64,000 nucleotides of DNA from Minisyncoccota bacterium (GTDB lineage Bacteria > Patescibacteriota > Minisyncoccia > Phycocordibacterales > UBA9973), in assembly GCA_041665925.1 (NCBI GenBank), contig JBAYHW010000001.1, forward strand, positions 102,685-166,684, written 5' to 3'. Below, piece after piece: positions 4,125 to 63,206 of this stretch. The notes under the pieces are model-generated. The model ran no database searches, was not told the origin of the DNA, and worked only from the letters and a program-made list of their open reading frames with translations. The stretch's first letter is position 1. Each line of letters starts with the position of its first letter. Position numbers and translations under genes: made by a program.

Positions 4125-4395
4125 TGATATTCAATCGTTGAATATCAGCCGACCAAAATCCGAAGATTTTGGGTTTGGAGTGAGGGCCCGTTTCCGGGCC
4201 CTCGGGGTTGTTGTGACCACTGTGTAGCCCGATGTCGGATGGCTACTGGGTCGTCTCGGGGTTCACGGCGCCGGCGATCTTCGCGACGGTCTGCGGGTTC
4301 GACTGGGGCGGCGAATGGAAGGAACGATAGGTGAAACTCTTCATGATGTTTCTCCTTTTTCATCGAGCTTATCCCGGTTCCCGGGGGCTCGATAA
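4125..4395 (-). other. GC-rich structured island: stacked hairpins with GAAA and UUCG tetraloops, consistent with a minus-strand structured RNA. It also contains SD-led micro-ORFs.
   Basis: On the minus strand the hairpins are GAGGGCCCG-GAAA-CGGGCCCUC (4182-4203), CCAAAAUC-UUCG-GAUUUUGG (4153-4172), UGAUAUUCAA-CGA-UUGAAUAUCA (4125-4147), and AUCGAGC(CCCGG-GAA-CCGGG...)GCUCGAU (4363-4393). GC content is far above the flanking DNA. Confidence 0.45.
4243..4344 (-). CDS. Micro-ORF (33 aa, MKSFTYRSFHSPPQSNPQTVAKIAGAVNPETTQ) with a strong SD (AAGGAG 7 nt upstream), lying inside the GC-rich island
   Basis: The ATG at 4344 is preceded by aaaaaGGAGaaacatc. The antisense plus-strand frame 4232-4330 encodes a hydrophobic 32-aa peptide, MSDGYWVVSGFTAPAIFATVCGFDWGGEWKER. 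Which strand is translated, if either, is unresolved. Confidence 0.25.
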   Translation of the reverse strand: MKSFTYRSFHSPPQSNPQTVAKIAGAVNPETTQ

Positions 4396-4470
4396 TAGTA
4401 TCGTGCAATATATATATATGAATTGCAAGAGAGGTTATTAACAGGGCTAAAAAGTGGTAGAATCAATAAT

Positions 4471-30555: not shown

Positions 30556-32556
30556 TTATATGTAAATTGTTTTTATTCCACTAGCCTCACCTTCTTTTTC
30601 TAGCAAATCTGAAGGAATGTCGCTGATAAATTCTGATGGGGTATTTATTTGTCGGGAACCGAAAATGGTTCGGAAGTTTGCAAAGGATAAAAATAATTTT
30701 TCTTTAGCTCTGGTGAGGGCCACATAGAAAAGTCGGCGCTCCTCCTCTCTGTCTTCGCCCGTTTGTCCTTCGTTTTGTCTTTGGTGTGGAAAGAGTCCAT
30801 CCTCTAGTCCGGTGACAAAAACATATTTGAATTCTAAACCCTTGGAAGCGTGGACAGTCATCAATTTCACGGCATTAATCGTTTCTTTTTTTTCTCCTCT
30901 TTCAATCAAAGAATCTTGATCTGAAGCGAGCGAAGCATCTTCTAAAAGTTTTTCTATCCCTGCGCCATTTTTTAAATTGTCATATTTTAGCGCTAGAGTT
31001 GCGAGTTCTTTTATGTTTTCTAATCTTTCTAAGTTTTCTTCCCCTCCATCCCCAAGCTCACTTTCAATGCCAGACTTTTTGACTACGAATTTTATTATCT
31101 CACTAGTTTTTGATTCTTGAATTTTTTCTTTTATTTCTTCTAATATATTATAGAAATTATTAACCTTTATACGTACTTTTATCGGTAGCTCATCTTTTTG
31201 TCCTGCAAAAATTTTCGCCAAAGTGACCTTACCTATTCCGCGGGCTGGGAAATTTATTATTCTTTTAACGTCTGATAAGCTTTCAGGATTCAATGCTGCA
31301 CGCAAGTATGCAAGGGTGTCCTTGATTTCTTTTCTTTCGAAAAATTTTACTCCGAGAACTTGATATGGGATATTGTATCTCAACATCGCTTCTTCTAAGG
31401 CTCTAGATTGGAAATTAGCACGGTATAATATGGCTATTTCAGACAACTGGGAGTCAGTAGTAATTTTTCTCAGGTTGTACTGCTTCGCAACGTCACCATT
31501 TAAAAACTTACTACTGACTCCATCTAAAATTTCTAAAATTTTTGTCGCCACAAATTCGGCTTCATCTGTTTCATCTATGGCTTCATACAAACCTATTTTC
31601 TCTCCTTCTGTGTTGTCGGTAAATAGATTTTTATCAGGGCGAAATTTATTTTTCTTAATTACTTCATTTGCCGCTTCTAAGATATTTTTTGTGGAACGAT
31701 AGTTTTGCTCTAGAAGAATTATTTTTGCGTTTGGATAATCTTTCTCAAAATTCAAAATATTTTTTAAATTTGCCCCTCGCCAAGAGTAAATGTTTTGATC
31801 GGCGTCCCCCACGACGCAAATGTTTTTATTTTTCTCTGAAAGTATTTTACACATCAAATATTGCACTTCGTTGGTATCCTGGTACTCATCCACGTGGATG
31901 TATTCCCACTTGTCTTGATAGATTTCCCGGACTTCTTTGTTTTCTTTTAATAATTTTGTCGCTTTTAAAAGCAGATCGTCGAAGTCTAATGCATTCTCTT
32001 TCATTTTTCTTTTTTCATATAAATTCCAAACCTGGGCCACAATTTTCCCGAAAGAACTTACTCCGCCTTCTTCTCTCTCCACATAGTCGGCTAGGTGGAT
32101 GAACTTTCCTTTTTCTCGGGAGATGACATTTTTTATTTTTTTCGGGTCATATTGTTTCGGGTCTATGCCGAGCTCTTTTAAGATGTCCTTTATAAGTGAA
32201 GTGGAATCATTTTCGTCTAAAATGGTGAAATATTTAGTTAGGCCTAAAATTCGAGCGTTTTCCTTTATGATAAAAACCCCCAATGAGTGGAAAGTGCTAA
32301 CAAATGGAAGTTTTTCTTGTTCTTGAGGTCCTTTGCTGTTTTTCCCTATTTCGGCAACAACCCTTTCCCGCATTTCTTTGGCTGCTTTGTTGGTAAAGGT
32401 GACTGCCAAGATTTTCTCAGGAGCCACTCCTTCTTTTATCAAATTCACTATTCTGTGGGTTATGGTTTTGGTTTTCCCTGCCCCTGCCCCGGCAACTATC
32501 AGAATAGCCCCCTTCGTATGGAGCGCGGCTTCTTTTTGCTCATTATTTAGTCCCAT
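30556..32556 (-). CDS. UvrD/PcrA-family SF1 DNA helicase
   Basis: Walker A is AGAGAGKTKTITHR and the SF1 motifs follow. The internal ATG at 32556 (MGLNNEQ) is preferred over the ORF-track start. Confidence 0.85.
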   Translation of the reverse strand: MGLNNEQKEAALHTKGAILIVAGAGAGKTKTITHRIVNLIKEGVAPEKILAVTFTNKAAKEMRERVVAEIGKNSKGPQEQEKLPFVSTFHSLGVFIIKENARILGLTKYFTILDENDSTSLIKDILKELGIDPKQYDPKKIKNVISREKGKFIHLADYVEREEGGVSSFGKIVAQVWNLYEKRKMKENALDFDDLLLKATKLLKENKEVREIYQDKWEYIHVDEYQDTNEVQYLMCKILSEKNKNICVVGDADQNIYSWRGANLKNILNFEKDYPNAKIILLEQNYRSTKNILEAANEVIKKNKFRPDKNLFTDNTEGEKIGLYEAIDETDEAEFVATKILEILDGVSSKFLNGDVAKQYNLRKITTDSQLSEIAILYRANFQSRALEEAMLRYNIPYQVLGVKFFERKEIKDTLAYLRAALNPESLSDVKRIINFPARGIGKVTLAKIFAGQKDELPIKVRIKVNNFYNILEEIKEKIQESKTSEIIKFVVKKSGIESELGDGGEENLERLENIKELATLALKYDNLKNGAGIEKLLEDASLASDQDSLIERGEKKETINAVKLMTVHASKGLEFKYVFVTGLEDGLFPHQRQNEGQTGEDREEERRLFYVALTRAKEKLFLSFANFRTIFGSRQINTPSEFISDIPSDLLEKEGEASGIKTIYI

Positions 32557-32915
32557 TAGATGGTCTGCGCTCGTATTCACCCTAACAATATAACACACAA
32601 TTATGATTTTTACCCTTATTTTATCGAATTTTTGCTAAAATTTACCCAAATTAGTTATCCACAGCAGGGTCTTGCTGGATTGACTTTTGGCCCTTTTTAC
32701 GATATTCTAAAGAGGTAGTTTTCTGAAGAGGAGCTGGGTACGAGCTGGCCGGACGAGAGAGTCGATAGTAACCATCGTGAGAACCTTTGTTTGCAGTGCT
32801 ATACGGTCGTGCTGTGATTCTACCCTTATTTCATTAGATTATTTGGGCAGAAAAGGAAATCTCGCGACAATTTGCTTGTTTTATAAAACCTAAATTCAAA
32901 ATTTTAAGATCTATT

Positions 32916-35745: not shown

Positions 35746-38190
35746 TTAATTTTTTTCTTGTAAATTTGGATAAGCGACAAACACTATTATATAGAGAACA
35801 GCCGATAATGCAAGGATAATTTTATATCCAGAAGACAAAATTATAATATTTGCTAAAGGTGTAGCTAGTACCGAAAAAGATCCATTGATGCTCCAAGCCC
35901 AAGGAAGCACCCAGTCTCGCTCTCCCCGAAATAGAGAAAGGCCCATAGAAAACGGAAAACCGAGAGCGATAGATAAAGGTGCCACAACTACTACTAAAAC
36001 TAGATATTTTAAAAAGAGAGGAACTGCAATTAAACTGAGCAACAGTGGATCTAAGAAAAACCATGTAGCTATAACCCATAACAATATTGTCGAACAAGCC
36101 AAGACTAATCCGCGGCGTGGGCGTTCTAGATATTTTTCTGAGAGGAAGCTTCCCAGCCCTGAAAAGATAAGCATACTTGCCAAGATGACAGCGAAGCCAT
36201 AGGTATTGTCATTTAAAAAGAACGAAGCTTTACCAATAAGATAAATTTCAAAAAAAAGAAAACCAAGACCCAAGCTTGCAAAATAAAAAATAGGTTTTAA
36301 TAAGTCTTTGGTGCTTGGTAAATATTTACGCCATCGAATCAAAGGCAAAAACAAGATTATGATTGCGATAATTATCGCCTGGACCAAAACAGCCATATTT
36401 ATCAATGCCCCCATTTCTCCTAGAGGAACTAGTGAAATATTTTTTAAAATAGTTTTTAATTTTGATAAACGTAAAATAGAATAGAAATCAGGATGGTCTA
36501 ATGTAGAAGGCTTAATACGGAAAAAGTTATTTTCAACAAATGAGTCATGGTCGCCAGAAAATAATTTTAAAATATCATCTCGGAGGGTATCGGACGCGGT
36601 ATTTTCACTGCGAATCATATCTCCTGATTCAAAAGAAACAGCTGGTAAGTCGTTCCAGACATCACCGCGCGGATTTATTCCTTTGAAATATGAGATGTCA
36701 AAAGAACGCTTTTCCGTAAAAATACGCAATTTTTGGATATCTTCTGAGGTAAAAACAGAAGGTGAAACTAAAATACGGGCATTCCAACTAGATCTATACA
36801 CTAAAATATGGTTTTCAGGAGAATCAATACCGAGCGAGAGCAGTGTCTGGTATATAGTTTCTAGAATTTTTAATGAATAAGTTGAAGACTCTCGGATTGA
36901 ATCAGGGATAGATATTATTCCATTGTTTTTCAGCATACCCAAGTAACTTTTCAAGGCTTCACCAGTGAATGTATATTTATTAGAATCAGATTGGCTTAAA
37001 AAATTTGAAGCAATGTCTATGACATCGAATTTTTCTTTTGTGTCGGTAGCCAACGCCATAGGCGCAGAAGAAATTAATTTTATTGAAGGATTGGTTAAGG
37101 TTTCTTTTAAGGCAAGATTATTATTTACTACAGAATACAATATCGGGTCTGGTTCCAGGGCGGTGAGGTTTTGTATGCCTAGTTTTGATGCTTCCAATAT
37201 ACGAAAACCACCCTCTGTGCCGATGAGTAAAGTGGAAGAGTTTGGCCGTATATAATAAGGGAAAGCATCCAACGTGGCGTCTATGTAGGTTCCCTTGTCG
37301 TCCCCCACTTTAGGGATACTAGCAATACGGTTACCGTCTTTATATAAACCAAATGAAGATGGGGGTGCGGTGGCGTTTAAGAGTGTTGCATTATTTGAAA
37401 AATCTACATCCAGACGTTCAGTGAAATTGTCTAGTACTAGGAAATATCCCCGTGGGGAAGTTATTTCTTGTACAGTTTTGTTGTCTTGTACATGGATTGA
37501 GGAGTATATAGATTTATATTCATTAAAGTTAGCCTGGTTGAATTTTACGATTGATAGCTCACATAAGATTGTCAGGATAATAAAGATTATTAAAAATGTT
37601 TTGCGTCGTATTTGGGTCGGTGCTGGCTGGAAAAACGCACTTATAACCAAAAGAGGTAACAATAAATTGAGAAGCACAAACGGATGGATAAAGAACATCA
37701 TTATTAACATTAAAACTGTGCCTGCCCCAGCACCGACGAGGTCCGCAGCATAAATACGAGGAATGGATTCTAGGGCAGATAGAAAATAAGAACCGATAAA
37801 TAATCCGGTTAAAAAGAAAAAAGGAAACAACACTGCATAATATTTCCAAACATTAAATAATTGGTCTAGCCAAGTATTCGGATTTTGGAATTCGAGCGGG
37901 TTGAATGGAATGATTGTCATTACCAAATATCCGATAGTAGCTGTAATCAGTAAAAGTAATGGAATTATGGAAAGGATTTGTCTGGTGTGTCGTTCAAAAA
38001 AATCTTTAAAAATACTAAGCACTACTCCACTGACCGCAAAGCCAACCATGGTGATAGAAATAACCCAGTAACCATACTCGGACCAACTGACTATGCTAAA
38101 ATAACGTGTGAGAGAAATTTCAAAACCTACAGCTACGGCCGATACTAAAAAAACCGGGACTAAAGATATTTTTTTTGTAATATTAAACAT
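35746..38190 (-). CDS. Large polytopic membrane protein with a central soluble SpeE-like/methyltransferase-fold domain
   Basis: An 814-aa protein with N- and C-terminal TM bundles flanking a ~390-aa soluble region. It may be a paralogue of the 29006-30547 fusion. Confidence 0.35.
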   Translation of the reverse strand: MFNITKKISLVPVFLVSAVAVGFEISLTRYFSIVSWSEYGYWVISITMVGFAVSGVVLSIFKDFFERHTRQILSIIPLLLLITATIGYLVMTIIPFNPLEFQNPNTWLDQLFNVWKYYAVLFPFFFLTGLFIGSYFLSALESIPRIYAADLVGAGAGTVLMLIMMFFIHPFVLLNLLLPLLVISAFFQPAPTQIRRKTFLIIFIILTILCELSIVKFNQANFNEYKSIYSSIHVQDNKTVQEITSPRGYFLVLDNFTERLDVDFSNNATLLNATAPPSSFGLYKDGNRIASIPKVGDDKGTYIDATLDAFPYYIRPNSSTLLIGTEGGFRILEASKLGIQNLTALEPDPILYSVVNNNLALKETLTNPSIKLISSAPMALATDTKEKFDVIDIASNFLSQSDSNKYTFTGEALKSYLGMLKNNGIISIPDSIRESSTYSLKILETIYQTLLSLGIDSPENHILVYRSSWNARILVSPSVFTSEDIQKLRIFTEKRSFDISYFKGINPRGDVWNDLPAVSFESGDMIRSENTASDTLRDDILKLFSGDHDSFVENNFFRIKPSTLDHPDFYSILRLSKLKTILKNISLVPLGEMGALINMAVLVQAIIIAIIILFLPLIRWRKYLPSTKDLLKPIFYFASLGLGFLFFEIYLIGKASFFLNDNTYGFAVILASMLIFSGLGSFLSEKYLERPRRGLVLACSTILLWVIATWFFLDPLLLSLIAVPLFLKYLVLVVVVAPLSIALGFPFSMGLSLFRGERDWVLPWAWSINGSFSVLATPLANIIILSSGYKIILALSAVLYIIVFVAYPNLQEKN

Positions 38191-38947: not shown

Positions 38948-39006
38948 TTGTTAATCGTATACTAAAAAAAACTATTTGCAAAATAAAATCAAATAAAATG
39001 TGAAAG

Positions 39007-39040
39007 GCGGGGCGTCGCGATGTTTTGCGACGCCCCGCCC
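39007..39040 (-). terminator. Intrinsic terminator: a 13-bp perfect GC stem GGCGGGGCGTCGC...GCGACGCCCCGCC followed by a U-run on the minus strand
   Basis: Read directly. It lies immediately 3' of the GC-rich micro-ORF on the minus strand. Confidence 0.75.
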
Positions 39041-39050
39041 GTGTGGCGAT

Positions 39051-39188
39051 CTACAACCAGCCCATTCTAATTGCGACCGACACTGCGGCCGCTACCAGAC
39101 ACAGGCCGGTGTAGAACTGGGCGTCGTTTGGAGGACCTACCAAGTCCTCCTTCAGCGCGGCCCAGTAGGCCCGTAGAATTTGTTTCAT
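39051..39188 (-). CDS. GC-rich small membrane peptide (45 aa, MKQILRAYWAALKEDLVGPPNDAQFYTGLCLVAAAVSVAIRMGWL), a self-contained expression unit
   Basis: It has a sigma70-like promoter (TTGACT, 16-nt spacer, TAGAAT) with an overlapping 7-bp inverted repeat (TACACTT/AAGTGTA), an SD GAGGAGG 5 nt before the ATG, a C-terminal TM helix, and a strong terminator. GC content and codon usage are unlike the host genes. Confidence 0.5.
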   Translation of the reverse strand: MKQILRAYWAALKEDLVGPPNDAQFYTGLCLVAAAVSVAIRMGWL

Positions 39189-39258
39189 GGGAACCTCCTC
39201 GCTAAAAATTCTACATACAAATACACTTTAGTCAAGTGTATTAAAAGTTTATCTTCTG

Positions 39259-39329
39259 TGCGGGATGGGAGAATCGAACCCCCAACCTCAGTTTGGAAAA
39301 CTGACGTTTTACCATTAAACTAATCCCGC
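39259..39329 (-). tRNA. tRNA-Gly (anticodon UCC)
   Basis: A manual cloverleaf: acceptor GCGGGAU/AUCCCGC, anticodon loop UUUCCAA, T-loop UUCGAUU, no encoded CCA, and an A73 discriminator. Confidence 0.8.
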
Positions 39330-39352
39330 ATTTTCAATCTCCTTTCGACTTG

Positions 39353-39423
39353 TCGGGCTGCTGGGAATCGAACCCAGTCTATCTGTTCCCAAAACAGACG
39401 TACTACCGGTATACGACAGCCCG
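39353..39423 (-). tRNA. tRNA-Pro (anticodon UGG)
   Basis: A manual cloverleaf: acceptor CGGGCUG/CAGCCCG, a 3-bp D-stem, anticodon loop UUUGGGA, T-arm UGGG-UUCGAUU-CCCA, and no encoded CCA. Confidence 0.8.
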
Positions 39424-39450
39424 TTTGACTTTTAAAGCTTTCCGAGTATA

Positions 39451-39861
39451 TCACAAAATAATATCACTGACTACTTTTATTCGTGCTTTTTTGTTTTTCA
39501 TATCTAAAAATACTACCAATAAATCTACTTGCCAATCCTTTTCGTCAGGGATTTTATTAGACAAAAGATAGGTCTGAATTGTTCTCGAAAGTCGTTTCAA
39601 TTTCCAGGGATGCACATTGTCTTCAGGGTGATATTGATCTAACGTGTCACGTGTAACCTCTTTTAATGTTTCACGTGATACACTTTTTACCTCAATAAAG
39701 TATATTTTATTGGCTTTTTCAGCAATTATATCTATTTCACCCCATTTTTTGGTATAATTTCTATCTAATATTGAAAAACCATGTTTCACGAGAAACTTTA
39801 CGGCAATATTTTCTCCTATTTCTCCAGTCTTTTGGCTTTCAGATGTGAATACTTTTGGCAT
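39451..39861 (-). CDS. yraN: UPF0102/YraN-family endonuclease
   Basis: Contains GEIDIIA...YFIEVK, the restriction-endonuclease-like core of YraN. Confidence 0.65.
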   Translation of the reverse strand: MPKVFTSESQKTGEIGENIAVKFLVKHGFSILDRNYTKKWGEIDIIAEKANKIYFIEVKSVSRETLKEVTRDTLDQYHPEDNVHPWKLKRLSRTIQTYLLSNKIPDEKDWQVDLLVVFLDMKNKKARIKVVSDIIL

Positions 39862-39892
39862 TTCAGCTATATTCTTATAAGAAATCCCCTAG

Positions 39893-39924
39893 TTTCACAT
39901 GAAATTTGTTTCACGTGAAACAAA
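39893..39924. promoter_or_regulatory. Two adjacent operator-like palindromes, TTTCA-CA-TGAAA (39893-39904) and a 20-bp perfect palindrome TTTGTTTCAC|GTGAAACAAA (39905-39924), 32-63 nt upstream of the yraN start
   Basis: Read directly. The GTTTCAC / CACGTG motif also recurs inside yraN and the 5' part of cca. Confidence 0.5.
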
Positions 39925-40103
39925 CGAGTAAATTTTAATGTCTTTTATTAAAATATCTTTATTTTACAACATATTTTTACTAAAACTGACCCGAAAAGAC
40001 ACCACTTTTGTATGTCCTTTATACCCATTACCAACATAGTTATCCACAGTTTTTGATAAAATCCTTATTGCATAAAGATTTAACTAAAGGACATTGATTT
40101 GTG

Positions 40104-40174
40104 TGCGGCTAGGGAGAATCGAACTCCCGTCTCATCCTTGGCAAGGACGTGTTCTACCACTAAACCATAACCGC
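40104..40174 (-). tRNA. tRNA-Gly (anticodon GCC)
   Basis: A manual cloverleaf: acceptor GCGGUUA/UAGCCGC, anticodon loop UUGCCAA, T-arm GGGAG-UUCGAUU-CUCCC, A73, and no encoded CCA. Confidence 0.85.
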
Positions 40175-40323
40175 AAAATTATAAATTATAATTCTAAAAA
40201 TGCTTTTGTATTATAGTATTTTCCTTGTTTTAATGCAATTGGCGAAATAGCTTGAAAAATAAGCATTATTTGCCATTTATATTTAAATAGTGTAAAATAC
40301 AAAGATTATTATTAAATAATTAT

Positions 40324-40395
40324 GCACCCGTAGTGAAATGGATATCACAACAGTCTTCGGAACTGTCGTTGGGGGTTCGAATCCCTCCGGGTGCA
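40324..40395 (+). tRNA. tRNA-Arg (anticodon UCG)
   Basis: A manual cloverleaf: acceptor GCACCCG/CGGGUGC, anticodon stem ACAGU/ACUGU with loop CUUCGGA, T-arm GGGGG-UUCGAAU-CCCUC, and no encoded CCA. The cca ATG follows 10 nt later. Confidence 0.75.
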
Positions 40396-40405
40396 CAAAA
40401 GCAAA

Positions 40406-42004
40406 ATGGACTCTTTTAAAAATTTAATAGAAAAAATTCCCAAGGAAGTTTCACATGTAACGAGCATCCTAGAGGGGGCTGGTTTTGAGGCGTACCTTGT
40501 GGGGGGTTGTGTGCGAGATCTTCTCATAGGTAGGGAGCCGAAAGACTGGGATGTGACGACCAATGCTAAACCGGAGCAAATTATCGACTTGTTCGAAAAA
40601 ACTGTTTATGAGAATACTTTCGGGACGGTTATGGTATTTGTTCCATGTGAAACACTAGAAAATGATGTTTCACAAGAAACATTTAAACAAATAGAGGTGA
40701 CTCCATACCGCCTTGAGGCAAAATATAGCGATTTTAGACACCCAGACGAGGTAAAATTTAGCGATAAGTTAGAAGATGATCTTAAAAGACGTGACTTTAC
40801 GGTCAATGCGCTAGCGTTAAATTCTAAAGGACACCTAGTTGATATATTTGAGGGTATAAAAGACATCAAAGACAAGACCATCCGTGCAGTGGGGGATCCG
40901 GACGATAGATTTTCTGAAGATGCACTTCGAATGTTGCGAGCAATTCGCTTCGCTTGCCAACTTGATTTTTCTGTGTCGTATGAAACAACAGAAAGTATTT
41001 TAAAAAATGCAGAATTAATAAAAAAAATTTCTGCAGAAAGAATTCGTGATGAATTTGAAAAAATAATTTTGTCTGCAAATCCCGCGAGTGGGATAATGAT
41101 GTTGCAGAAATTTAAGCTATTAAAAAATATTATTCCGGAGCTGGAGGAGGGGATAGGATGCGAACAATCCGGAGAACATTTTTATGACGTTTGGAATCAT
41201 GGGCTCTTAGCTTGCCAACATGCGGCAAACAAGAATTGGCCTTTAGAAATAAGGCTTTCGGCGCTATTCCATGATATTGGTAAGCCGAGAACGAGAGGGT
41301 TACAGGTACAGAAAAATTCTGCCGCTTTACCCGCAAGCGGGCTCCGACACGGACAGAATTTTTCTGTACCTGTTACCCCAAAGAAAAAATTTACTTTCTA
41401 CGGACATGAGGTAGTGGGCGCACGGATGGCAAAAAAGATTATGGAGCGATTAAAATTTTCGCGAGATGAAATTGAAATGGTAGAAAAAATGGTACGCAAC
41501 CATATGTTTTTTTCCGACACTGAAAAAATTACTCTCTCAGCTGTGCGGAGAATAATTGCTAAAGTAGGGAAAGAAGATATTTGGCGTCTTATGGATGTCC
41601 GTGAGTGTGATAGAGTAGGCATGAAGAAAAAAGAAGCTCCGTATCGCCTCCGAAAGTATTTCGCAATGGTGGAGGAAGCTCTGCGCGACCCTATCTCTGT
41701 CGGACAGCTAAAAATAAATGGGGAATATATGATGAAAGAACTTGGAATTAAGCCAGGGCCTCGAATGGGCTGGATTTTGCACTCACTTTTAGAAGAAGTC
41801 CTTGATGCTCCGGAGAAAAATACTGTGGAACATCTCTCCGAACTAGTAAAATCACTAAATATGCTCGGTGACGATGAGCTTAAAACGCTCGGCGAGCGGG
41901 GCAAAGAGAAAAAAGAAGAAATTGAAGAAGAAGAAGTAGCAAAGCTTCACCAAAAGCATGGAGTGAGATCGGGCAAGGGACCCGATCGCAAGGCCGGAGC
42001 CTGA
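40406..42004 (+). CDS. cca: CCA-adding tRNA nucleotidyltransferase with an HD domain
   Basis: Has GGCVRDLLIGREPKDWDVTT (the polymerase-beta head), the HD motif LFHDIGKP, and GHEVVGA. The ATG at 40406 is preferred because the ORF-track GTG start overlaps the tRNA. Confidence 0.85.
   Translation: MDSFKNLIEKIPKEVSHVTSILEGAGFEAYLVGGCVRDLLIGREPKDWDVTTNAKPEQIIDLFEKTVYENTFGTVMVFVPCETLENDVSQETFKQIEVTPYRLEAKYSDFRHPDEVKFSDKLEDDLKRRDFTVNALALNSKGHLVDIFEGIKDIKDKTIRAVGDPDDRFSEDALRMLRAIRFACQLDFSVSYETTESILKNAELIKKISAERIRDEFEKIILSANPASGIMMLQKFKLLKNIIPELEEGIGCEQSGEHFYDVWNHGLLACQHAANKNWPLEIRLSALFHDIGKPRTRGLQVQKNSAALPASGLRHGQNFSVPVTPKKKFTFYGHEVVGARMAKKIMERLKFSRDEIEMVEKMVRNHMFFSDTEKITLSAVRRIIAKVGKEDIWRLMDVRECDRVGMKKKEAPYRLRKYFAMVEEALRDPISVGQLKINGEYMMKELGIKPGPRMGWILHSLLEEVLDAPEKNTVEHLSELVKSLNMLGDDELKTLGERGKEKKEEIEEEEVAKLHQKHGVRSGKGPDRKAGA
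41305..41370. repeat. Perfect 17-bp inverted repeat (GGTACAGAAAAATTCTG ... CAGAATTTTTCTGTACC) enclosing a nested CCCGC-AA-GCGGG hairpin. It is exactly 66 nt (22 codons) and lies in frame inside the cca HD domain.
   Basis: Read directly. It encodes the extra peptide ...GLQVQKNSAALPASGLRHGQNFSVPVT... between HDIGKP and GHE. Confidence 0.7.
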
Positions 42005-42076
42005 CGAGGCGAGGAGGGCTCGCGAGATTTTTCAGTAGAAAAATACTTGTGAGAAAAAATAAGGTATAATACATAT

Positions 42077-42280: not shown

Positions 42281-43960
42281 TTAAGAAACTTCTTGCTGAT
42301 AGCACTGCTCGCAGTACACTGTCTCGGGGCGGTCGGGAGAGTAGGAGGTCTCAAATTCGTTTTCGCATTTTTTGTCTTTGTGCAAGTGATTTTTTAGTTC
42401 ACACATACAAGTGCGGGGCCAGAGTTGGCGGGGGTTTCTTTTTTTCATTCGGTCTTGATGGCGACATTCGAAGTCTTTATGTGGTAGAGGGATATTCATT
42501 CTTCTATAGAAATCAAATTCACCGCGAGTGATGCGGAAATTCTTTTTGCAGTCTTTGCAGACTAGAACTTGGTTTAAAATTTCTTCAGTTGTTTCACCGA
42601 GGGTGGCTGGGATCTCATTTTCTTTCAATGTTTCTTTCCCATAAGTTCCAGATGTTTGTGCCTGCCAATTAAAACCTTTTTCTCGGGCTTCTTTTTCTGA
42701 CAACGGATAATATTCTTGAGCCAGACTTTCATTGTAGCCGAAAGGAGAGAGTTCTGGAGGGAAAAAATCGCCGTAAACTCCTTCTTTTTTCAAATGTTCC
42801 ACGATTTCTTCTTTTAATTTCTGATATTCTTCTTTAGAATATTCTTTATTAAGAATGTGATAATTCTTTTTATTTAAACCGACACAACCGAAACACCCGA
42901 CGCAGTTATAGCAACTGTCAGAGTAGTGGACTTCGTTTCCATACATAACATAAACTCCAGTGATACAGTTCGTGCTCTGGAGTGTGCCCATAACGTTGTA
43001 TAGGCGCTCTGGGCGGAAATACAGGTTGTTGCAGTCTTGGCAATCTAGAGCTTCTTCGGCATCAGCGACATAAGAAGAATTTTTCGTGTTGGAAGCGTCA
43101 AATATATTTACTCCTTCATGGCAGTTATACATATAGTCTCCGGTGGCCTTGTTGCACTTGGTCGCGAGGGCGTATTTTACGAGTGCTTTTGAACGTAAGT
43201 CATTGTATTTTTCTTTAGCCTGCTCAATGGATTCATAAGAAGATAAAATTTCGGCTTTTTTCTTTTCAAACTCTTCTTTAGTGTATTGTTTGTTTTCTAT
43301 GCAGTAGTTTAGGTTGCGGCCATTGCTGCACAAGATGCAATTCTGACAATTTCTCATATCAAAAGAGAAAAGAACATCCACACATTCTTGCAATCTTTCC
43401 CCATACACACACTTGAAGGATCTGCGGGTGTCCACACATTCATAGCAGAGTTCGGAGTCGTATAAGAAAGTGCAGTCCATGGAATTTTTACAACGTTGTA
43501 TCAATCTCCCATAGAGACAATCTTCATTGTTTTCTGCGGCAAAAATCAAATAGCAGTTTTTATTTTCTCCAGCGTTGTTGGTGTAGTCGCTATTTATACT
43601 ATCTATGACCAGGAGCCCAATTCGGGGAACTTTATTTTTGAGTTCGGCGAACTGTTCCATAAAAGGACGAGATTTGTTCCAATCCATGGCGTAGATTTTC
43701 GGGTCCCAGCCGTCGCCCCACCAACATTTCTGACAATAAACAGGGAAAGGTGTGCCGGCAGGGTAGAGCGAAACACCGTCTTTGTTACAAAGGTCACAAG
43801 TCCTTTTATAGAGAGTGCGTTCATTTCTAAAAGCGAGTCTACGCATCATCCGGCAGTCCGGGCAATAATTCGGTGGTGGAACCTTTATTTGATCGTAAAA
43901 AATCAAATCCTCCTTTCTTACCTCAAAATCTTTTTTACAGCTTTTACAATTTTTTTCCAT
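42281..43960 (-). CDS. Cysteine-rich repeat protein (559 aa, about 50 Cys, mostly in CxxC, CxxCxxC and CxxCxxCxxC clusters), paralogue A
   Basis: The N-terminal module is CKSCKKDF...CPDCR...CDLCNKD...YCQKCWW. There are two blocks of ~20-aa Cys-containing repeats, each ending in the K.Y.LNK.YSKEE-Y motif. The C-terminal module is CMCEL.NH.H...YCEQCYQ. No signal peptide. Confidence 0.6.
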   Translation of the reverse strand: MEKNCKSCKKDFEVRKEDLIFYDQIKVPPPNYCPDCRMMRRLAFRNERTLYKRTCDLCNKDGVSLYPAGTPFPVYCQKCWWGDGWDPKIYAMDWNKSRPFMEQFAELKNKVPRIGLLVIDSINSDYTNNAGENKNCYLIFAAENNEDCLYGRLIQRCKNSMDCTFLYDSELCYECVDTRRSFKCVYGERLQECVDVLFSFDMRNCQNCILCSNGRNLNYCIENKQYTKEEFEKKKAEILSSYESIEQAKEKYNDLRSKALVKYALATKCNKATGDYMYNCHEGVNIFDASNTKNSSYVADAEEALDCQDCNNLYFRPERLYNVMGTLQSTNCITGVYVMYGNEVHYSDSCYNCVGCFGCVGLNKKNYHILNKEYSKEEYQKLKEEIVEHLKKEGVYGDFFPPELSPFGYNESLAQEYYPLSEKEAREKGFNWQAQTSGTYGKETLKENEIPATLGETTEEILNQVLVCKDCKKNFRITRGEFDFYRRMNIPLPHKDFECRHQDRMKKRNPRQLWPRTCMCELKNHLHKDKKCENEFETSYSPDRPETVYCEQCYQQEVS

Positions 43961-50227: not shown

Positions 50228-50405
50228 AGATATATTCTAACACGTCGCACAATATTTTCCTTCAGAATTTGTTATTTAGAAAGCACATATAATTTTCTGC
50301 TGAAAATTTATTCGAGCTCGGCTCGACAGCCTCCGCAAGTCTTTCTAAATAACAAATTCTTACGGAATCTTGCAATTTTAGCTACTTTGTGCTACTATAT
50401 GCACT

Positions 50406-53655: not shown

Positions 53656-54528
53656 ATGGATCCAGAAAATAAGCAACAGAATAAAGTCATAGAAACGTAT
53701 GCCGAAGACATGGCTACTGTTATTGGAAATGATACTGAAGGTTTAATTAAAAAAATCATCCACGGCGAAGAACAGAACGAAATAGAAAAAAGGAAACTCT
53801 CCCCAGAATCAAAACAGAACCAAGTTTTTATGTATATTGGAGTTGTGCTTTTGGTTTTAGCATTTGGAGTGCTAACCTTTTTCTTTTTGCAAGACAAGAA
53901 AAATACTGTACCAGTGGAAAAACAATTCACTCCGCTTGTTTTTAATGACAAAAGTGTTTTCTTGGAAGTTGCTGGATTGAAGGCGGAGGCAATAAGGCAG
54001 ATGGTTTTAAGTGAAATCAATACTTCTTCGGTTAAAGACGAAGGTGTGGAGGGTATTTATCTGACAGAAAATAAAAAAGTAATAGGATTGAGGAGGTTCC
54101 TCTCTTTAATTAAAAGTAATCTCGCTCCGAATGAAAACGTACTTCTTGTAAGTGATAATTTCCTCTTGGGGATGGTAGGAAGTACAGCAGACGTAGAGGA
54201 GCCTTCAGGGAGTGGGTTTTTTATTTTACTTAAAGCTCGCTCTACTTTTGATATTTTTGACTCTATGCGTGCCTGGGAGGATAAAATGTTCTCTGACTTG
54301 CGGGGATTTCTAGGAATTAGTATTGATAGTAATACCAGCTATCTTCTGACTAAAGATTTTGAAGATGGAATTGTGGAAAACAAAAATGCACGTATTCTTT
54401 ACGACAAGGAAGGGAAAATTGTTTTAATGTATATATTTGCAGATGAAAATTCTGTGGTCATCACTGACTCCGAAGGAGCTATTCATGAAGTAGTTCTCCG
54501 CCTCGCATCTAAAGCAACTAAAGAGTAA
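53656..54528 (+). CDS. Hypothetical membrane-anchored protein
   Basis: A 290-aa protein with a single TM helix (VFMYIGVVLLVLAFGVLTFFFL), separated from pnp by 4 nt. Confidence 0.4.
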   Translation: MDPENKQQNKVIETYAEDMATVIGNDTEGLIKKIIHGEEQNEIEKRKLSPESKQNQVFMYIGVVLLVLAFGVLTFFFLQDKKNTVPVEKQFTPLVFNDKSVFLEVAGLKAEAIRQMVLSEINTSSVKDEGVEGIYLTENKKVIGLRRFLSLIKSNLAPNENVLLVSDNFLLGMVGSTADVEEPSGSGFFILLKARSTFDIFDSMRAWEDKMFSDLRGFLGISIDSNTSYLLTKDFEDGIVENKNARILYDKEGKIVLMYIFADENSVVITDSEGAIHEVVLRLASKATKE

Positions 54529-54533
54529 TTTTA

Positions 54534-54635
54534 AGCTAACGTGTGTTTTAAAAGAGCACGGATATTTTTTTACTAAAAAATTCCTCGTGCTCACGCCGTC
54601 GCGCTCGCAAGTCTCTTTTAAAACACACGTTAGCT
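54534..54635. repeat. 23-bp perfect inverted repeat (AGCTAACGTGTGTTTTAAAAGAG / CTCTTTTAAAACACACGTTAGCT) enclosing a 56-nt core shared with other intergenic repeats. Probable bidirectional terminator.
   Basis: Read directly. It lies in a convergent intergenic region. Confidence 0.6.
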
Positions 54636-54745
54636 TTCTAAGTAAATAGTTTAATTTTTAGGGGTTTTGAGCTCGACGGAGCGAAAACTTCAGAATTTTT
54701 TAAGCTTCAAAAAATTCGTACTGGCAAAATATAAAGCTATTTACT

Positions 54746-56374
54746 TTATATAACAGGCAATTCTACGTAGAGTTGGGAACCCTTGCCGGCGCCTTCGGAT
54801 TCGGCCCAGACGCGGCCTTTGTGTTCTTGGACCACCATTTTGACAGTGAAGAGCCCGTAGCCAGTACTGTCCACATTTACTTTTACAGAGTCCTTGCCTC
54901 GGCCACCTTCAGTAAATAAATTCTTTTTATCTTCTTCGGTAATTCCGAGGCCCGTGTCTACGATAGACAGAAGAGCATTTTTCCCCTTTACCCCTAACCC
55001 TACTTTTATAACTCCTTCTTTTGTATATTTGATAGAATTTTCAATTAAGTTGTTTACCACTTCTTTGAGCCAGAAGGAGTCTCCGTTTACTTGATAAGAA
55101 CCGTCTTTTATATCCGTTTCTATTTTTAATCCTTTAGCTTCAGCCCCTACTTTTTTGTCTTCTACTGTTTTAAGGACGACATCTTTGAAATCAATATTTT
55201 TCATGTCATATTTTATCAAGCCATTCTGTAAATTAGCCACATTTAATACTAGGTCTACTGTCTGTATCCCGCCGTTATCAAATTCAAGCCCCTGGGTAGC
55301 TATTTTTTTAACTTCAGGAGAAACTTCTCCAAATGTTCCGTCCAAAAGTCCGGCGAAAATAAACTTGGTACGAGTAAACGAACCCTTAACTTTGTGGGTA
55401 ATAAGGTGAACCAAACTTTCACGTTGCTTGATGACATTTTGCAAATCAATATTAAGCTTCGCCAGTTGTTCCTTCTGCTCTATTTCAATTTTTACACTCT
55501 TAACTAAGAAATAGCCAAAAATTATTACAGAAATAAATGTAACCCCATTCAAAACTCGATTAATTGGATTTCTTATAAAGAAAAACTGAGAACCAATAAG
55601 GAGTACCATTCCCCAAACTAATGCTTGTGCTGCGATAAGCTTCACATTAAAAGTATGAAATTTGACGATAAGATAAGATAAAAATCCCATAAAAATTGGC
55701 ATACCGAATAAGCCATATTGAGCGGTAACCCAATCCTCAGTAAAACTTCCCACTATGTTTCCAAAACTAAATGCTAATAAGAATAAAGCAATCCCCACAA
55801 GAAATATTATTATTTCTTTACGTCTGGTGATGTTATGTTTATAACCAAAAACAATAACCAAAATACTCAGTACGGTAAATAAAATTTCTAGAATATAACT
55901 ATAATATACAATTATATCACTTTCTATAGCATAGCAGTCACTTAAGTCTACCCCCAGTAGATTATATTTTGTTGAAATCAAGAGTATAAATGGGACTGTT
56001 GCTAAAAAAATTATTAAATTTACTTTAAAAGAAGGGAATTTATTATTTATATATGTGTATACAAGATAAAAGCTCAATAGGAATACAAAGAACTCAAATA
56101 GTATCTGTAAAGACCAAAAAAACATTGTAATATCAGTGCGATTGGTGGCCCAGAGGATTAAGTCGAAAAAAGCCCAAACGCCAAAAGCGACAGCAACGCT
56201 CAATAACAATTTACCAGTCAAAGATTTTTTATTATTCCAAAAAACCAGAAAACCTAGCACCAACGATGCAACAATGGCTGGGACGTGTGAATAATACAAC
56301 AAACTAGGAACATTGCTAGAATATACTAAAAAACTAGCTGATTCCCACGGACAAACAAGGTTATATATATCCAT
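54746..56374 (-). CDS. Sensor histidine kinase (multi-TM N-terminus, HisKA plus HATPase_c)
   Basis: About nine TM helices, then the H-box LITHKVKGSF, the N-box NLIENSIKYT, and the G-boxes DTGLGI and GYGLF. No response regulator is adjacent. Confidence 0.8.
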   Translation of the reverse strand: MDIYNLVCPWESASFLVYSSNVPSLLYYSHVPAIVASLVLGFLVFWNNKKSLTGKLLLSVAVAFGVWAFFDLILWATNRTDITMFFWSLQILFEFFVFLLSFYLVYTYINNKFPSFKVNLIIFLATVPFILLISTKYNLLGVDLSDCYAIESDIIVYYSYILEILFTVLSILVIVFGYKHNITRRKEIIIFLVGIALFLLAFSFGNIVGSFTEDWVTAQYGLFGMPIFMGFLSYLIVKFHTFNVKLIAAQALVWGMVLLIGSQFFFIRNPINRVLNGVTFISVIIFGYFLVKSVKIEIEQKEQLAKLNIDLQNVIKQRESLVHLITHKVKGSFTRTKFIFAGLLDGTFGEVSPEVKKIATQGLEFDNGGIQTVDLVLNVANLQNGLIKYDMKNIDFKDVVLKTVEDKKVGAEAKGLKIETDIKDGSYQVNGDSFWLKEVVNNLIENSIKYTKEGVIKVGLGVKGKNALLSIVDTGLGITEEDKKNLFTEGGRGKDSVKVNVDSTGYGLFTVKMVVQEHKGRVWAESEGAGKGSQLYVELPVI

Positions 56375-57957: not shown

Positions 57958-59022
57958 TTACTTTAATTTTTCAATTTGTTCCCAGGACATGTTTTTTCTA
58001 CCGAAATGTCCATAGGTAGCTGTCTTGCGGAAGATAGGCTGGCGAAGACCTAGACTTTTTATTATTGAAAGTGGCTTAAAATCAAAATTCTTCCTTACTA
58101 TTTCTGATAAATCTTCTCCTTTTTCGTTCACGGCTTCTATCATAAGCGGTTCAGCCATACCTATGGCGTAGGCGACAGACACTAGAGCTTCCTTGCCATA
58201 ACCATTTGCAACCAGATTCTTAGCAACGAAGCGGGCCATATATGCTCCCGAGCGATCTACCTTTGTAGAATCCTTCCCAGAGAAACATCCTCCACCATGG
58301 GAAATGAGTCCTCCGTATGAATCTACCATTATTTTGCGTCCAGTAAGGCCAGTGTCGGCTTCGAAACCGCCCTGAATGAATTGCCCCGTTGGGTTAATCA
58401 ATATGTTGGTGGTCTTTTTTTCTTCTTCGGATAAAAATGGAAAAATTATTTTTTCAGTAATTTCTTTTCTTATTTCCTCAATCGAAACATCTGGAGCATG
58501 CTGCGCACTCACCAAAACAGTTTTTAATTTACCATTATCGTAGGTCACCTGAGTTTTACCATCTGGTTTGAGCCATTTTATTTCTTTCCCCTTGCGAGCC
58601 CTCTCTAGTCTTTTTGCAAGTCTGTGTACTAGTACTATTCCTTTTGGTAAAAATTTCTCAGTTTCATTTGTGGCGAAGCCATACATAATACCCTGATCTC
58701 CAGCGCCTCCAGTGTCTACACCCATAGCTATGTCTGGGGATTGAGTCACAACATGAGCAGATATTTGTAGTTCATCATCGTAGCCTATTTCTTTATAAAC
58801 CGTGCGAGCAATTTTAACATAGTCTACTGTTCCCTTAGATGTTACTTCTCCACCAATTACCAGCTTGCCATGTCCGCCGAAAGTTTCTACAGCAACTCGG
58901 CTCATAGGGTCTTGCTCTAAATATGCATCTAAAATGGCATCTGAGATTTGATCACAGATTTTATCTGGATGACCGGACGTAACGCTCTCCACTGTATACG
59001 TATCATTGTGTTTATAGAACAT
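57958..59022 (-). CDS. metK: S-adenosylmethionine synthetase
   Basis: ESVTSGHPDKICDQISDAILD, GGGAFSGKD and the rest of the MetK signature are present. The ATG at 59022 is preferred because the ORF-track TTG extension overlaps the riboswitch terminator. Confidence 0.9.
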   Translation of the reverse strand: MFYKHNDTYTVESVTSGHPDKICDQISDAILDAYLEQDPMSRVAVETFGGHGKLVIGGEVTSKGTVDYVKIARTVYKEIGYDDELQISAHVVTQSPDIAMGVDTGGAGDQGIMYGFATNETEKFLPKGIVLVHRLAKRLERARKGKEIKWLKPDGKTQVTYDNGKLKTVLVSAQHAPDVSIEEIRKEITEKIIFPFLSEEEKKTTNILINPTGQFIQGGFEADTGLTGRKIMVDSYGGLISHGGGCFSGKDSTKVDRSGAYMARFVAKNLVANGYGKEALVSVAYAIGMAEPLMIEAVNEKGEDLSEIVRKNFDFKPLSIIKSLGLRQPIFRKTATYGHFGRKNMSWEQIEKLK

Positions 59023-59035
59023 GTGTTTTTTAAAA

Positions 59036-59200
59036 TAAAAAATCCTCAAGTAATGAGGAAAGATTTTTATGTGGACTAGACATACTTATCTTTCCCGATA
59101 TTGTTTTCACAACATCTGGTTGGATTTAGCACCTTTCTTTTAGGTTGCTGGGCGGGTCATTGAGCCAATTCTCTCGTCGCCACTCTCGATATATTTAGTT
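59036..59200 (-). ncRNA. SAM-I (S-box) riboswitch with a terminator expression platform, in the metK leader
   Basis: The minus-strand RNA reads AUAUCGAGAGUGGCGACGAGAGAAUUGGCUCAAUGACCCGCCCAGCAACC...AGGUGCUAAAUCCAACCAG...AUCGGGAAAGAUAAG. The S-box hallmarks UC.AGAG.GG, AUGA, GCAACC, GGUGCUAAAUCC and GAUAAG are all present. A terminator hairpin UCCUCA-UUACU-UGAGGA with a U-run follows, and its 5' arm is complementary to GGAAAG, which would form an antiterminator. Confidence 0.7.
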
Positions 59201-61631: not shown

Positions 61632-63206
61632 ATGAGCTTTGCTAAAGTATATTCAGCTCAAGTGAATCTACTGTCTGGAGCTATTGTAACCATTGAAGTG
61701 GACCTCTCTAGGGGGTTACACACTTTTAGTGTAGTGGGCCTACCGGACAAAGCCGTAGACGAATCTAAAGACCGAGTCAGTGGAGCTATTAAAAATTCCG
61801 GATTTAAATCTCCGAAAGCCCAGAATCAAAAAATTATTGTTTCACTTTCCCCAGCGGATTTGAAGAAAGAAGGGCCGTTTTTTGATTTGGCCATAGCCAT
61901 TGCTTATCTTAAATCTACTGGGGATATAAAGTTTGATTCCGAGAAGAAAATTTTCTTAGGGGAGCTCGGGCTGGATGGAACCTTGCGAGCCGTTCGGGGC
62001 GCATTGCCACTTGCCCAAGAAGCTAAAAGGCGTGGTTTCGAAGAAATATATTTACCGAAAGAAAATGCCGTAGAGGCAGCATTAGTGGAAGGAATTAAAA
62101 TTTTTGGAGCAGGGAGCTTGAATGAAGTTGTGGAGCACATAGCCCCGACACCTAAAGGGGTCGGGGTCCCGACATCGGATAAAGTCCGAGCGTCGGGAAC
62201 GAAGATTCCAGTTCAACCACAAACTAAGGTAAACTATAAAAAAGAACACAAAGGAGCGGATTTCTCTGATATTCGCGGACAAGAGGGAGCCAAAAGGGGT
62301 CTCGAAATTGCCGCAGCCGGCGGGCACAACATAGCCATGTATGGCCCGCCGGGCACAGGGAAAACGATGCTCGCGCGAGCGTTTTCGGAGCTATTGCCCG
62401 AGCTAAGCCTAGAAGAAGTGCTGGAGCTCACGGGGATACACTCCGTGGCGGGAAGCACGCAAGGAGAGCTCGTGTGCTTCCCGCCTTTTCGCGCTCCGCA
62501 CCACACTGCTTCTTATGTATCAATTATCGGTGGAGGGACTTTCCCAAAACCCGGCGAAGTCACCCTCGCACACCGTGGAGTATTGTTCTTGGATGAATTT
62601 CCAGAATTTGAAAAGAGAGTTATAGAATCTCTACGTCAGCCACTCGAAGACAATATCGTCTCAATCTCACGGGCGAGAGGCACCGCTGTTTTTCCTTCCA
62701 ATTTTATTCTCGTCGCAGCGATGAATCCTTGCCCGTGCGGAAATGCTGGTAACAAACAAAAAGCCTGCATTTGCAAACCAGGAGATTTAGATAGATACAA
62801 AAGAAAATTGTCTGGCCCAATCGTGGATCGTATTGATCTTTGGGTATCTGTCGGCAATGTGGATTACAAAAAACTTGGAGACGTCGGAAGCGGGGAGAGA
62901 AGTGAAAATATAAAAGAAAGAGTGATCAAAGCGCGAGCCAAGCAAAGAGAAAGATTTCAAAAATTTGGAAAGAAAATTACTTCCAATAGTGAAATGAATG
63001 TGAAAGATTTAGAAAACATGGTGAGGCTCGCGCCCGAAGTTCGCGATCTCTTGGACAGGAGCGCAGAGAACCTAAGTCTGTCTGCTCGTGCTTATCACCG
63101 AGTCATAAAAATCGCCCGTACTATCGCGGACCTCGAAAATTCAGAAAATGTGGAAGCGAATCATATACTGGAAGCCATACAATACAGACCAAAGGTGAAT
63201 TCGTAA
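61632..63206 (+). CDS. comM: Mg-chelatase-like AAA+ ATPase YifB/ComM
   Basis: An N-terminal Lon-protease-like domain, Walker A GPPGTGKTM, and the C-terminal ChlI-like domain over 524 aa. Confidence 0.85.
   Translation: MSFAKVYSAQVNLLSGAIVTIEVDLSRGLHTFSVVGLPDKAVDESKDRVSGAIKNSGFKSPKAQNQKIIVSLSPADLKKEGPFFDLAIAIAYLKSTGDIKFDSEKKIFLGELGLDGTLRAVRGALPLAQEAKRRGFEEIYLPKENAVEAALVEGIKIFGAGSLNEVVEHIAPTPKGVGVPTSDKVRASGTKIPVQPQTKVNYKKEHKGADFSDIRGQEGAKRGLEIAAAGGHNIAMYGPPGTGKTMLARAFSELLPELSLEEVLELTGIHSVAGSTQGELVCFPPFRAPHHTASYVSIIGGGTFPKPGEVTLAHRGVLFLDEFPEFEKRVIESLRQPLEDNIVSISRARGTAVFPSNFILVAAMNPCPCGNAGNKQKACICKPGDLDRYKRKLSGPIVDRIDLWVSVGNVDYKKLGDVGSGERSENIKERVIKARAKQRERFQKFGKKITSNSEMNVKDLENMVRLAPEVRDLLDRSAENLSLSARAYHRVIKIARTIADLENSENVEANHILEAIQYRPKVNS

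Follow-up and report, generated by a model that had tools for sequence, protein, structure and literature searches.

Background

Palindromic repeats inserted in frame into protein-coding genes are a classic oddity of Rickettsia. The RPEs (Ogata et al. 2000; PMC10969869) are dispersed palindromes of a small, reduced genome that lie in frame in unrelated housekeeping genes, with 44 in-frame insertions in R. conorii (PMC10969869). They make up several coexisting families, and on translation they add to the protein surface an extra segment in which the same peptide recurs. The hairpin described here lies in cca, the gene for the CCA-adding enzyme, of a Minisyncoccota bacterium (assembly GCA_041665925.1). 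The DNA analyzed, referred to as the window, is a stretch of 64,000 nucleotides of contig JBAYHW010000001.1 (positions 102,685 to 166,684), and all coordinates without a contig name are those of the window. A sequence-only reading of the window had noted the hairpin as a perfect inverted repeat. The current analysis indicates, with a probability of about 0.8, that it is a tolerated, translated, in-frame copy of a REP-, RPE- or MITE-like palindromic repeat, belonging to a set of copies designated family A.

Family A appears to share these general properties with the RPEs, and it likewise combines multiple dispersed copies with a stable hairpin and in-frame positions in conserved open reading frames (ORFs). 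It differs in several respects, 1) the host belongs to the Patescibacteria, which makes common descent with the RPEs unlikely, 2) the unit is shorter, about 82-86 nt as compared to about 100-150 nt, 3) a conserved GC-rich apical core is carried on a covarying stem and 4) many families stack at one codon gap in different species. The likeness is one of layout and behavior, and family A appears to work like an RPE without being a demonstrated member of that group.

In several bacteria, intragenic REPs are enriched in the genes for UvrA, UvrD, ligase and tRNA synthetases (PMC3733652), which are also among the kinds of host gene found for the present elements. Like the REP and REPIN sequences, including the intragenic GTAG- and CGTC-tagged REPs (PMC3733652), they are hairpins with no obvious target duplication and with compensatory variation of the stem, and the CGTC/GACG tetranucleotide is the tetraloop in two of the other hairpin families found here, G and K. 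In contrast, family A has GCTTCGC-like ends on both sides in place of a terminal GTAG or CGTC tag and is mostly genic, only 12 of 51 unique copies being outside long ORFs. No RAYT gene was found in the part of the genome that was available, about 84 kb.

Bacterial MITEs (Coxiella QMITE1/2, ERIC, Correia; PMC5896051, PMC3184786) are short non-autonomous inverted repeats that form stable stem-loops and can create in-frame fusions or insertions. Terminal inverted repeats of this type are present in family A, since the element is an inverted repeat throughout and its inner arms are conserved. The differences are that no target-site duplication was seen and that conservation is highest at the apex and inner stem rather than at the termini only. 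No parent insertion sequence with matching ends turned up, although a transposase with split ends on its two flanks was not searched for. The SPRITE of S. pneumoniae, a terminator-like mobile repeat named in PMC10969869, resembles family A in the succession of A-tract, GC hairpin and T-tract, and the intergenic relatives at gene ends in the window (54533-54746) are comparable, but termination at the cca copy would be harmful, since the gene that contains it is essential. The palindromes of Volvox mitochondrial and plastid DNA (PMC2670323) are also short and GC-richer than the AT-rich, compact genomes in which they have spread, coding regions included; they belong to eukaryotic organelles and are unrelated in sequence, so this is an analogy only. 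Family A works like the REP, RPE and MITE elements, but it is not a demonstrated member of any named family. A literature search of the searchable library for such elements in the candidate phyla radiation (CPR) or Patescibacteria found none; the reports obtained were from other lineages.

The hairpin in cca

The 17-nt inverted repeat is present as first described, GGTACAGAAAAATTCTG at 41305-41321 being followed by its exact reverse complement at 41354-41370. The hairpin, initially taken to span 66 nt, is longer. A repeat search gave arms of 25 nt each with a single T/T mismatch (41297-41321 and 41354-41378) and a spacer of 32 nt, for a complete element of 82 nt on the plus strand (41297-41378). 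The left arm, GGGTTACAGGTACAGAAAAATTCTG (41297-41321), comprises an outer GCTTCGC-like base motif, a fast-evolving middle stem and the inner segment AGAAAAATTCTG, which is conserved in the family; the family consensus over this arm begins nnGCTTCGCnGGnnCAGAAAAATTCTG. The right arm, CAGAATTTTTCTGTACCTGTTACCC (41354-41378), pairs with it. Between the two is a GC-rich core loop, CCGCTTTACCCGCAAGCGGGCTCCGACACGGA (41322-41353), the signature of the family, which folds into a 3-bp helix, CCG/CGG (41322-41324 and 41350-41352), and an apical CCCG-CAAG-CGGG hairpin. The apical hairpin, CCCGCAAGCGGG at 41330-41341, had been seen in the sequence-only reading, but it consists of 4 bp and a CAAG tetraloop rather than 5 bp and a 2-nt loop. 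The element had also been called GC-richer than its host gene. This is correct for the palindrome as a whole (51.2%, compared to 41.6% for the gene and 38.0% for the window), but the excess is confined to the loop (69%), the arms having a GC content of only 40%.

The hairpin is contained in the ORF 40391-42004 and, as previously located, is in the HD domain between the codons for HDIGKP (41270-41287), the HD motif and left border of a variable gap, and those for GHEVVGA (41402-41422), its right border. The 66-nt span is indeed 22 codons long and the frame is kept; however, it is not in phase with the codons, since 41305 is a third codon position. The net gain relative to orthologues with an empty site is 63 nt or 21 codons, the gap being 111 nt instead of 48 nt.

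The RNA fold calculated for a 96-nt region was -47.5 kcal/mol, while shuffled sequences gave -19.9 ± 3.0 (z = -9.1) and none of the 200 shuffles was as good. When the whole window was scanned with a sliding 110-nt fold, the cca site, at -49.3 compared to a mean of -18.4 (sd 6.8), was among the strongest dozen. A search of Rfam 15 at the gathering threshold gave no match to the hairpin, and at an E-value threshold only chance-level matches (E = 7) were obtained for 41200-41470.

Dispersal of family A

Only the two arms themselves were recovered when the window was searched for the 17-nt arm with up to three mismatches, indicating that the arm is not the repeated unit. Further copies, which the sequence-only reading had suggested looking for by means of the arm, were found with the core. 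The 21-nt center of the loop, TACCCGCAAGCGGGCTCCGAC, matched exactly at 62 sites on metagenome contigs, 7 in cca and 55 elsewhere. The sites outside cca were either intergenic, one of them adjoining a tRNA gene, or in genes with flanking peptides resembling IleRS, LigA, MnmA, UvrD and PheS (ileS, ligA, mnmA, uvrD and pheS). As would be expected of a mobile palindromic element, not all copies were in genes: 39 of the 51 unique copies were within long ORFs (35 sense and 4 antisense) and the other 12 were outside. The copy in the IleRS gene of L108 also has the arm GGTACAGAAAAATTCTG, and some contigs have two copies each (L090; L099 + L131). The shared unit is the core and inner stem, not the literal 17-nt arm.

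The family-A covariance model matched the cca element at 41295-41380 with 101.8 bits (E 1.4e-23). It also found a second copy in the same genome, located in frame in uvrA about 9.5 kb beyond the start of the window (L145:19967-20050; 68.1 bits, E 4e-15). The uvrA copy has perfect 22-nt arms, ACTTTGCAGAAGAAAAATTCTG and CAGAATTTTTCTTCTGCAAAGT, a 32-nt loop and a variant core with a CCC-TAAA-GGG apex, and the encoded peptide is ..LQKKNSARFTLKGSDTDQNFSS... Scans of IMG/VR with the cores of families A and G gave no matches and thus no sign of phage carriage.

An insertion hot spot in cca orthologues

The insert is lineage-specific and does not correspond to an equivalent loop in all orthologues. 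The gap between HDIGK and YGHE is 36-54 nt (12-18 aa) in distant orthologues and up to 219 nt within the clade of at least 70% identity. In all 77 species-representative loci, including 30 with inserts of 80-219 nt, the gap is a multiple of three and free of stops. Among the 120 closest proteins (73-83% identity), 34 had an empty site and 86 an insert or remnant; these inserts represent at least 10 peptide families in both orientations, some as tandem doubles of 70-82 aa. All of the long cca inserts fold as a long hairpin with a GC-rich apex. The insert types are scattered over the host tree, so for example the window has family A while L003 is empty, L002 has a one-arm remnant and L001 has another type.

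L081, the closest relative (83% amino acid identity), shares this element, with arms that mismatch at two positions. Relative to L081 and to the remnant in L082, the window has two G:C to A:T changes, each made on both arms. The L082 allele retains the left arm and the first nucleotides of the core and has a 48-nt in-frame deletion; it is a deletion product and not the pre-insertion state. One-arm alleles (L002, L027, P0024, P0062) were considered as a pre-insertion state in which a flank was subsequently copied in inverted orientation, but this was rejected because L082 still has the first core nucleotides.

Lineage specificity, the dispersed core and the uvrA copy in the same genome all bear out the suggestion, made in the sequence-only reading, of a tolerated in-frame insertion of a palindromic element. 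The second suggestion, an RNA structure that modulates cca translation, found no support, as discussed in the following section.

Anatomy and covariation of the stem

A set of 32 genic copies could be aligned without gaps to the consensus nnGCTTCGCnGGnnCAGAAAAATTCTGCCGCTTTACCCGCAAGCGGGCTCCGACACGGACAnAATTTTTCTGnnnCTGCTnCGCnn, which shows that the whole hairpin is the repeated unit and that the middle of the stem is its fast-evolving part. The unit is about 82-86 nt and the consensus about 86 nt. The GCTTCGC-like base motif on both sides forms a conserved 3x3 internal loop (alignment columns 20-22 and 95-97); because it is conserved between sites, the motif is either part of the element or a target preference. 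It is followed by the variable stem and then by a conserved inner stem made up of an A-tract and a T-tract, AGAAAAATTCTG and CAGAATTTTTCT, which carries the conserved GC-rich apical core. The possibility that the copy-specific stems were derived from the target was rejected because copies in different genes share the 86-nt consensus, including the base motif outside the variable stem, and because the IleRS copy in L108 has the same 17-nt arm as the cca copy.

Pairing is maintained while the stem changes. In the 32-copy alignment, 85.6% of the cells were paired, compared to 68.6% after shuffling and 33-48% in slid controls. Both sides had changed in 24 of the 28 outer-stem pairs, and there were 185 double-change cells (61.6 shuffled; 29-62 slid). 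The covariation score was 0.424, as compared to 0.138 for shuffled alignments, none of 500 of which reached it, and 0.08-0.11 for the slid controls.

Compensatory changes of this kind, together with the very stable fold, could be explained by a cis-acting RNA structure in the cca mRNA, such as a ribosome pause, an RNase III site, an internal attenuator or an autoregulatory tRNA mimic. Two other properties are in keeping with such a structure, the excess of sense over antisense copies in genes (35 to 4) and the layout of the unit, A-tract, GC hairpin and T-tract, which scans as terminator-like. The terminator-like pattern is on the minus strand inside the core, and in the cca copy the T-tract pairs with the A-tract in the middle of the ORF. 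The composition of the stem, however, argues against selection on an mRNA fold. Watson-Crick pairs account for 89% of the stem cells and, on the sense strand, G.T is found in 8 of 544 cells and A.C in 23 of 544; G.U is thus nearly absent and rarer than A.C, the opposite of what selection on the mRNA would be expected to produce. Moreover, orthologous cca genes have unrelated hairpins, remnants or nothing at this site, the element occurs in many unrelated genes and in intergenic DNA, and there is no Rfam match. We consider an mRNA structure unlikely.

The rarity of G.T relative to A.C points instead to a constraint on the DNA palindrome, which may act on the two strands alike or operate by one arm serving as a template for correction of the other. 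Since A.C outnumbers G.T on the sense strand, wobble pairs would be carried by the bottom strand; the asymmetry may stem from mutation bias or from the identity of the folding strand. Templated correction would be in keeping with the extension of the palindrome into native codons in some orthologues, and homogenization of the arms at the DNA level seems probable.

The host gene and the inserted peptide

The host gene (40406-42004, plus strand) encodes a class II CCA-adding enzyme, an HD-domain nucleotidyltransferase of 532 aa, as judged from the ORF, the Pfam domains PolyA_pol, PolyA_pol_RNAbd, HD and tRNA_NucTran2_2, the orthologues and relatives in the PDB (6IBP, 1MIV, 3WFO). The probable start is ATG 40406, favored over GTG 40391 because the latter overlaps the 3' end of tRNA-Arg(TCG) (40324-40396). 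The closest relatives of the protein are labeled Paceibacterota, Nomurabacteria or Patescibacteria.

The element and its immediate flanks (41291-41386, plus strand) encode residues 296-327, TRGLQVQKNSAALPASGLRHGQNFSVPVTPKK. In the AlphaFold model, residues 293-298 and 328-332 are strands and residues 296-327 have a predicted local distance difference test score (pLDDT) below 50, suggesting that the element encodes a disordered extension of the tip of a β-hairpin. The sole solved relative that covers this part, 3WFO, has a short β-hairpin with a 9-aa loop there. The most likely consequence for the CCA-adding enzyme is no more than an additional flexible loop on its surface, and for the cca gene itself the insert is probably neutral.

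An alternative is that the peptide was an adaptive gain for the HD domain, for example a loop that mediates regulation or a new interaction, with the palindrome as only its vehicle. About 28 of the 35 sense copies are read in the same frame as in the window, ..ALPASGLRHG.. (..KNSAALPASGLRHGQNFS..), and most members of the clade keep inserts, both of which might be expected of a useful peptide. The bias in frame, however, is more simply explained by tolerance. The genic copies of family A are open in frame, and the conserved unit, as read from its sequence, has five open frames out of six. The frames other than the dominant one would give Cys-rich, hydrophobic or highly basic peptides, or a stop. 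In addition, the peptide is wholly different between sister species, 34 of the 120 closest orthologues do without an insert, the identical peptide is found in unrelated enzymes and disorder is predicted for it. An adaptive role is quite unlikely, and the peptide is probably tolerated rather than useful.

Origin and maintenance of the palindrome

A local origin, in which the gene's own sequence gave rise to the palindrome, without mobility, through template switching or hairpin-primed copying, would account for the paired changes that keep the arms perfect and for the extension of the palindrome into native codons (GGCAGA/TCTGCC in L025, GCAGAG/CTCTGC in L017 and GCGAGACGA/TCGTCTCGC in L010). 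It would not account for a core and inner stem that recur in other genes and genomes, in 50 copies or more, as well as in the uvrA copy of the same genome, and the one-arm alleles, which retain a piece of the core, are deletion products and not precursors. This explanation is very improbable, but local templated correction may maintain or extend the arms after insertion. Least probable of all is removal or skipping of the element at the RNA level, by intron-like excision or translational bypass, for although compact stable hairpins are used elsewhere for bypassing (phage T4 gene 60, some yeast mitochondria), neither process would need the frame, and in all 77 loci, the 30 with inserts of 80-219 nt among them, the length is divisible by three and stops are lacking; the genic family-A copies are likewise open in frame.

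The preferred interpretation, insertion of a palindromic repeat that is, or recently was, mobile, suggests the following sequence of events. A family-A copy would have entered the coding sequence immediately past the HD motif, where the tip of a β-hairpin on the protein surface is encoded. The element would be transcribed and translated with cca, and the roughly 21 residues added (..QKNSAALPASGLRHGQNFS..) would probably lack order and do no harm. Only those insertions that keep the frame, are free of stops and encode a bland peptide would survive, and one sense frame would dominate among the survivors. The copy would then be inherited vertically, its arms kept complementary by paired Watson-Crick changes, until it was eroded by in-frame deletions or joined by other elements. 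The mover is likely to be an enzyme that recognizes a folded single strand, as proposed for REP/RAYT or IS200/IS605-like systems; a hairpin-recognizing, single-strand transposase is the most economical guess.

Several observations weigh against this interpretation, 1) no transposase or other mobilizing gene was identified, the search covering the 11 window ORFs scanned with Pfam and the annotated genes of both flanks (window and flanks together about 84 kb), 2) no target-site duplication was visible at the intergenic copies, 3) within the 64-kb window the covariance model found the cca copy only, 4) there were no near-identical pairs of loci with a filled and an empty site, all differing by at least 17% in nucleotide sequence, so that mobility is inferred from distribution rather than observed, 5) the case for translation of the insert comes from conservation of the frame, not from protein data, 6) the AlphaFold model is of moderate quality (mean pLDDT 70.6) and 7) the sense bias (35:4) and the strong conservation of the core and of the internal loop might be explained by a function of the nucleic acid in its folded form instead. 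The best pairs of loci are 75-83% identical.

Other hairpin families and hot spots

Family A is not the only element at these sites. The cores G, K, C/F, E and M of the cca inserts recur in uvrD, xer and intergenic DNA. A second hot spot is the gap in uvrD between KILEILD and SEIAVLYRANFQS, with a length of 6 aa in L013 as compared to 24 aa in the window. The window insert (31450-31521), in a minus-strand gene for a UvrD/PcrA helicase (30556-32598), is a hairpin with 19-nt arms that encodes the 24 aa GVSSKFLNGDVAKQYNLRKITTDSQL immediately before SEIAILYRANFQS. Elsewhere this site has G, K, M or P types or just 6 aa. No alignment of L008 with L011 was obtained at the uvrD site.

These findings raise the possibility, which we regard as tentative and rather doubtful as a whole, that the Paceibacteria/Nomurabacteria, and perhaps the CPR more widely, have a large, undescribed superfamily of hairpins with at least 10 families and five joint features, 1) the elements may colonize essential genes in frame at recurrent permissive-loop hot spots (the HD-hairpin tip of cca, two uvrD loops, uvrA, ileS, ligA and xer), 2) integration may occur preferentially at or beside resident hairpins, 3) self-templated correction of the DNA may preserve the perfect complementarity of the arms, 4) the elements may be a major ongoing source of lineage-specific protein insertions in reduced genomes and 5) they might be moved by something other than a classical transposase that binds terminal inverted repeats.

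In L081, a B-type element with the core CTCCAGCCTTCGGCTGGACCCTTCCG (L081:15181-15272) is within the xer recombinase gene and antisense to it; the xer protein is 339 aa in L081 and 319 aa in the window. In L014 (L014:15949-18129), about 1.2 kb separates the two parts of a split xer, the break falling between residues 276 and 271 of the query alignment, and an intervening element may be present.

Three long intergenic hairpins were also observed in the window. One, at 50257-50367, between the start of xer and a probable rpsO and upstream of the latter, has arms of 20-27 nt and a 57-nt loop that resembles the reverse complement of the G core. The other two (54533-54636 and 54640-54746) are adjacent and have G-like cores in opposite orientations, one with perfect 24-nt arms. 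This pair fills the gap between the convergent genes 53656-54528 (plus strand) and 54746-56374 (minus strand), the second a histidine kinase gene, and looks like a bidirectional terminator pair. A search of Rfam with the intergenic hairpins gave nothing meaningful.

Surroundings of cca and other features of the window

Four tRNA genes are clustered at 39258-40396, just before cca. The 3' end of cca (41950-42030) is GC-rich (62%) and contains the hairpin GATCGGGCAAGGGACCCGATC; the C-terminal tail of the protein, ..SGKGPDRKAGA, is not in the consensus of the orthologues, and a terminator-like hairpin (42009-42023) follows the 3' end of the gene. Directly downstream of cca is a Cys-rich ORF of 559 aa (42281-43960, minus strand) with many CxxC pairs and no Pfam match. 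Another ORF without a Pfam match, 814 aa, is located at 35746-38190 on the minus strand.

Several GC-rich hairpins in coding sequence, for example GGCGGGAAGCACGCAAGGAGAGCTCGTGTGCTTCCCGCC, are found at 62111-62490 in a Mg-chelatase/ComM-like gene (61632-63206), one of them overlapping the stretch that encodes ..GGHNIAMYGPPGTGK.. (Walker A-like). There are two GC-rich, strongly folding islands, one between ruvB and yebC (4150-4400), where the ENA assembly has a 72-aa gene, and the other upstream of the tRNA cluster (39000-39180), which includes GGCGGGGCGTCGCGATGTTTTGCGACGCCCCGCC; neither had an Rfam match. A SAM riboswitch (59083-59195, minus strand; 50.8 bits) is present upstream of the S-adenosylmethionine synthetase gene (57958-59049, minus strand).

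Conclusions

The hairpins described here appear to represent new families within a known class of element, one that is apparently undescribed in this lineage. The points of most interest are the convergence of many families on one codon gap, what moves them and the perfection of their arms. At the cca and uvrD hot spots, elements have been gained, replaced, inserted in tandem and worn down in frame, a natural series in which target choice, palindrome maintenance and protein tolerance could be studied. A population of in-frame palindromes analogous to that of Rickettsia, and more diverse, would be a warning to annotators and structure predictors that such loops are repeat-derived, and would offer an explanation for many of the clade-specific insertions in CPR proteins. 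If the interpretation is true, selfish hairpins in essential genes would be tolerated by, and may even have shaped, two lineages that are unrelated but alike in having tiny genomes and depending on a host.

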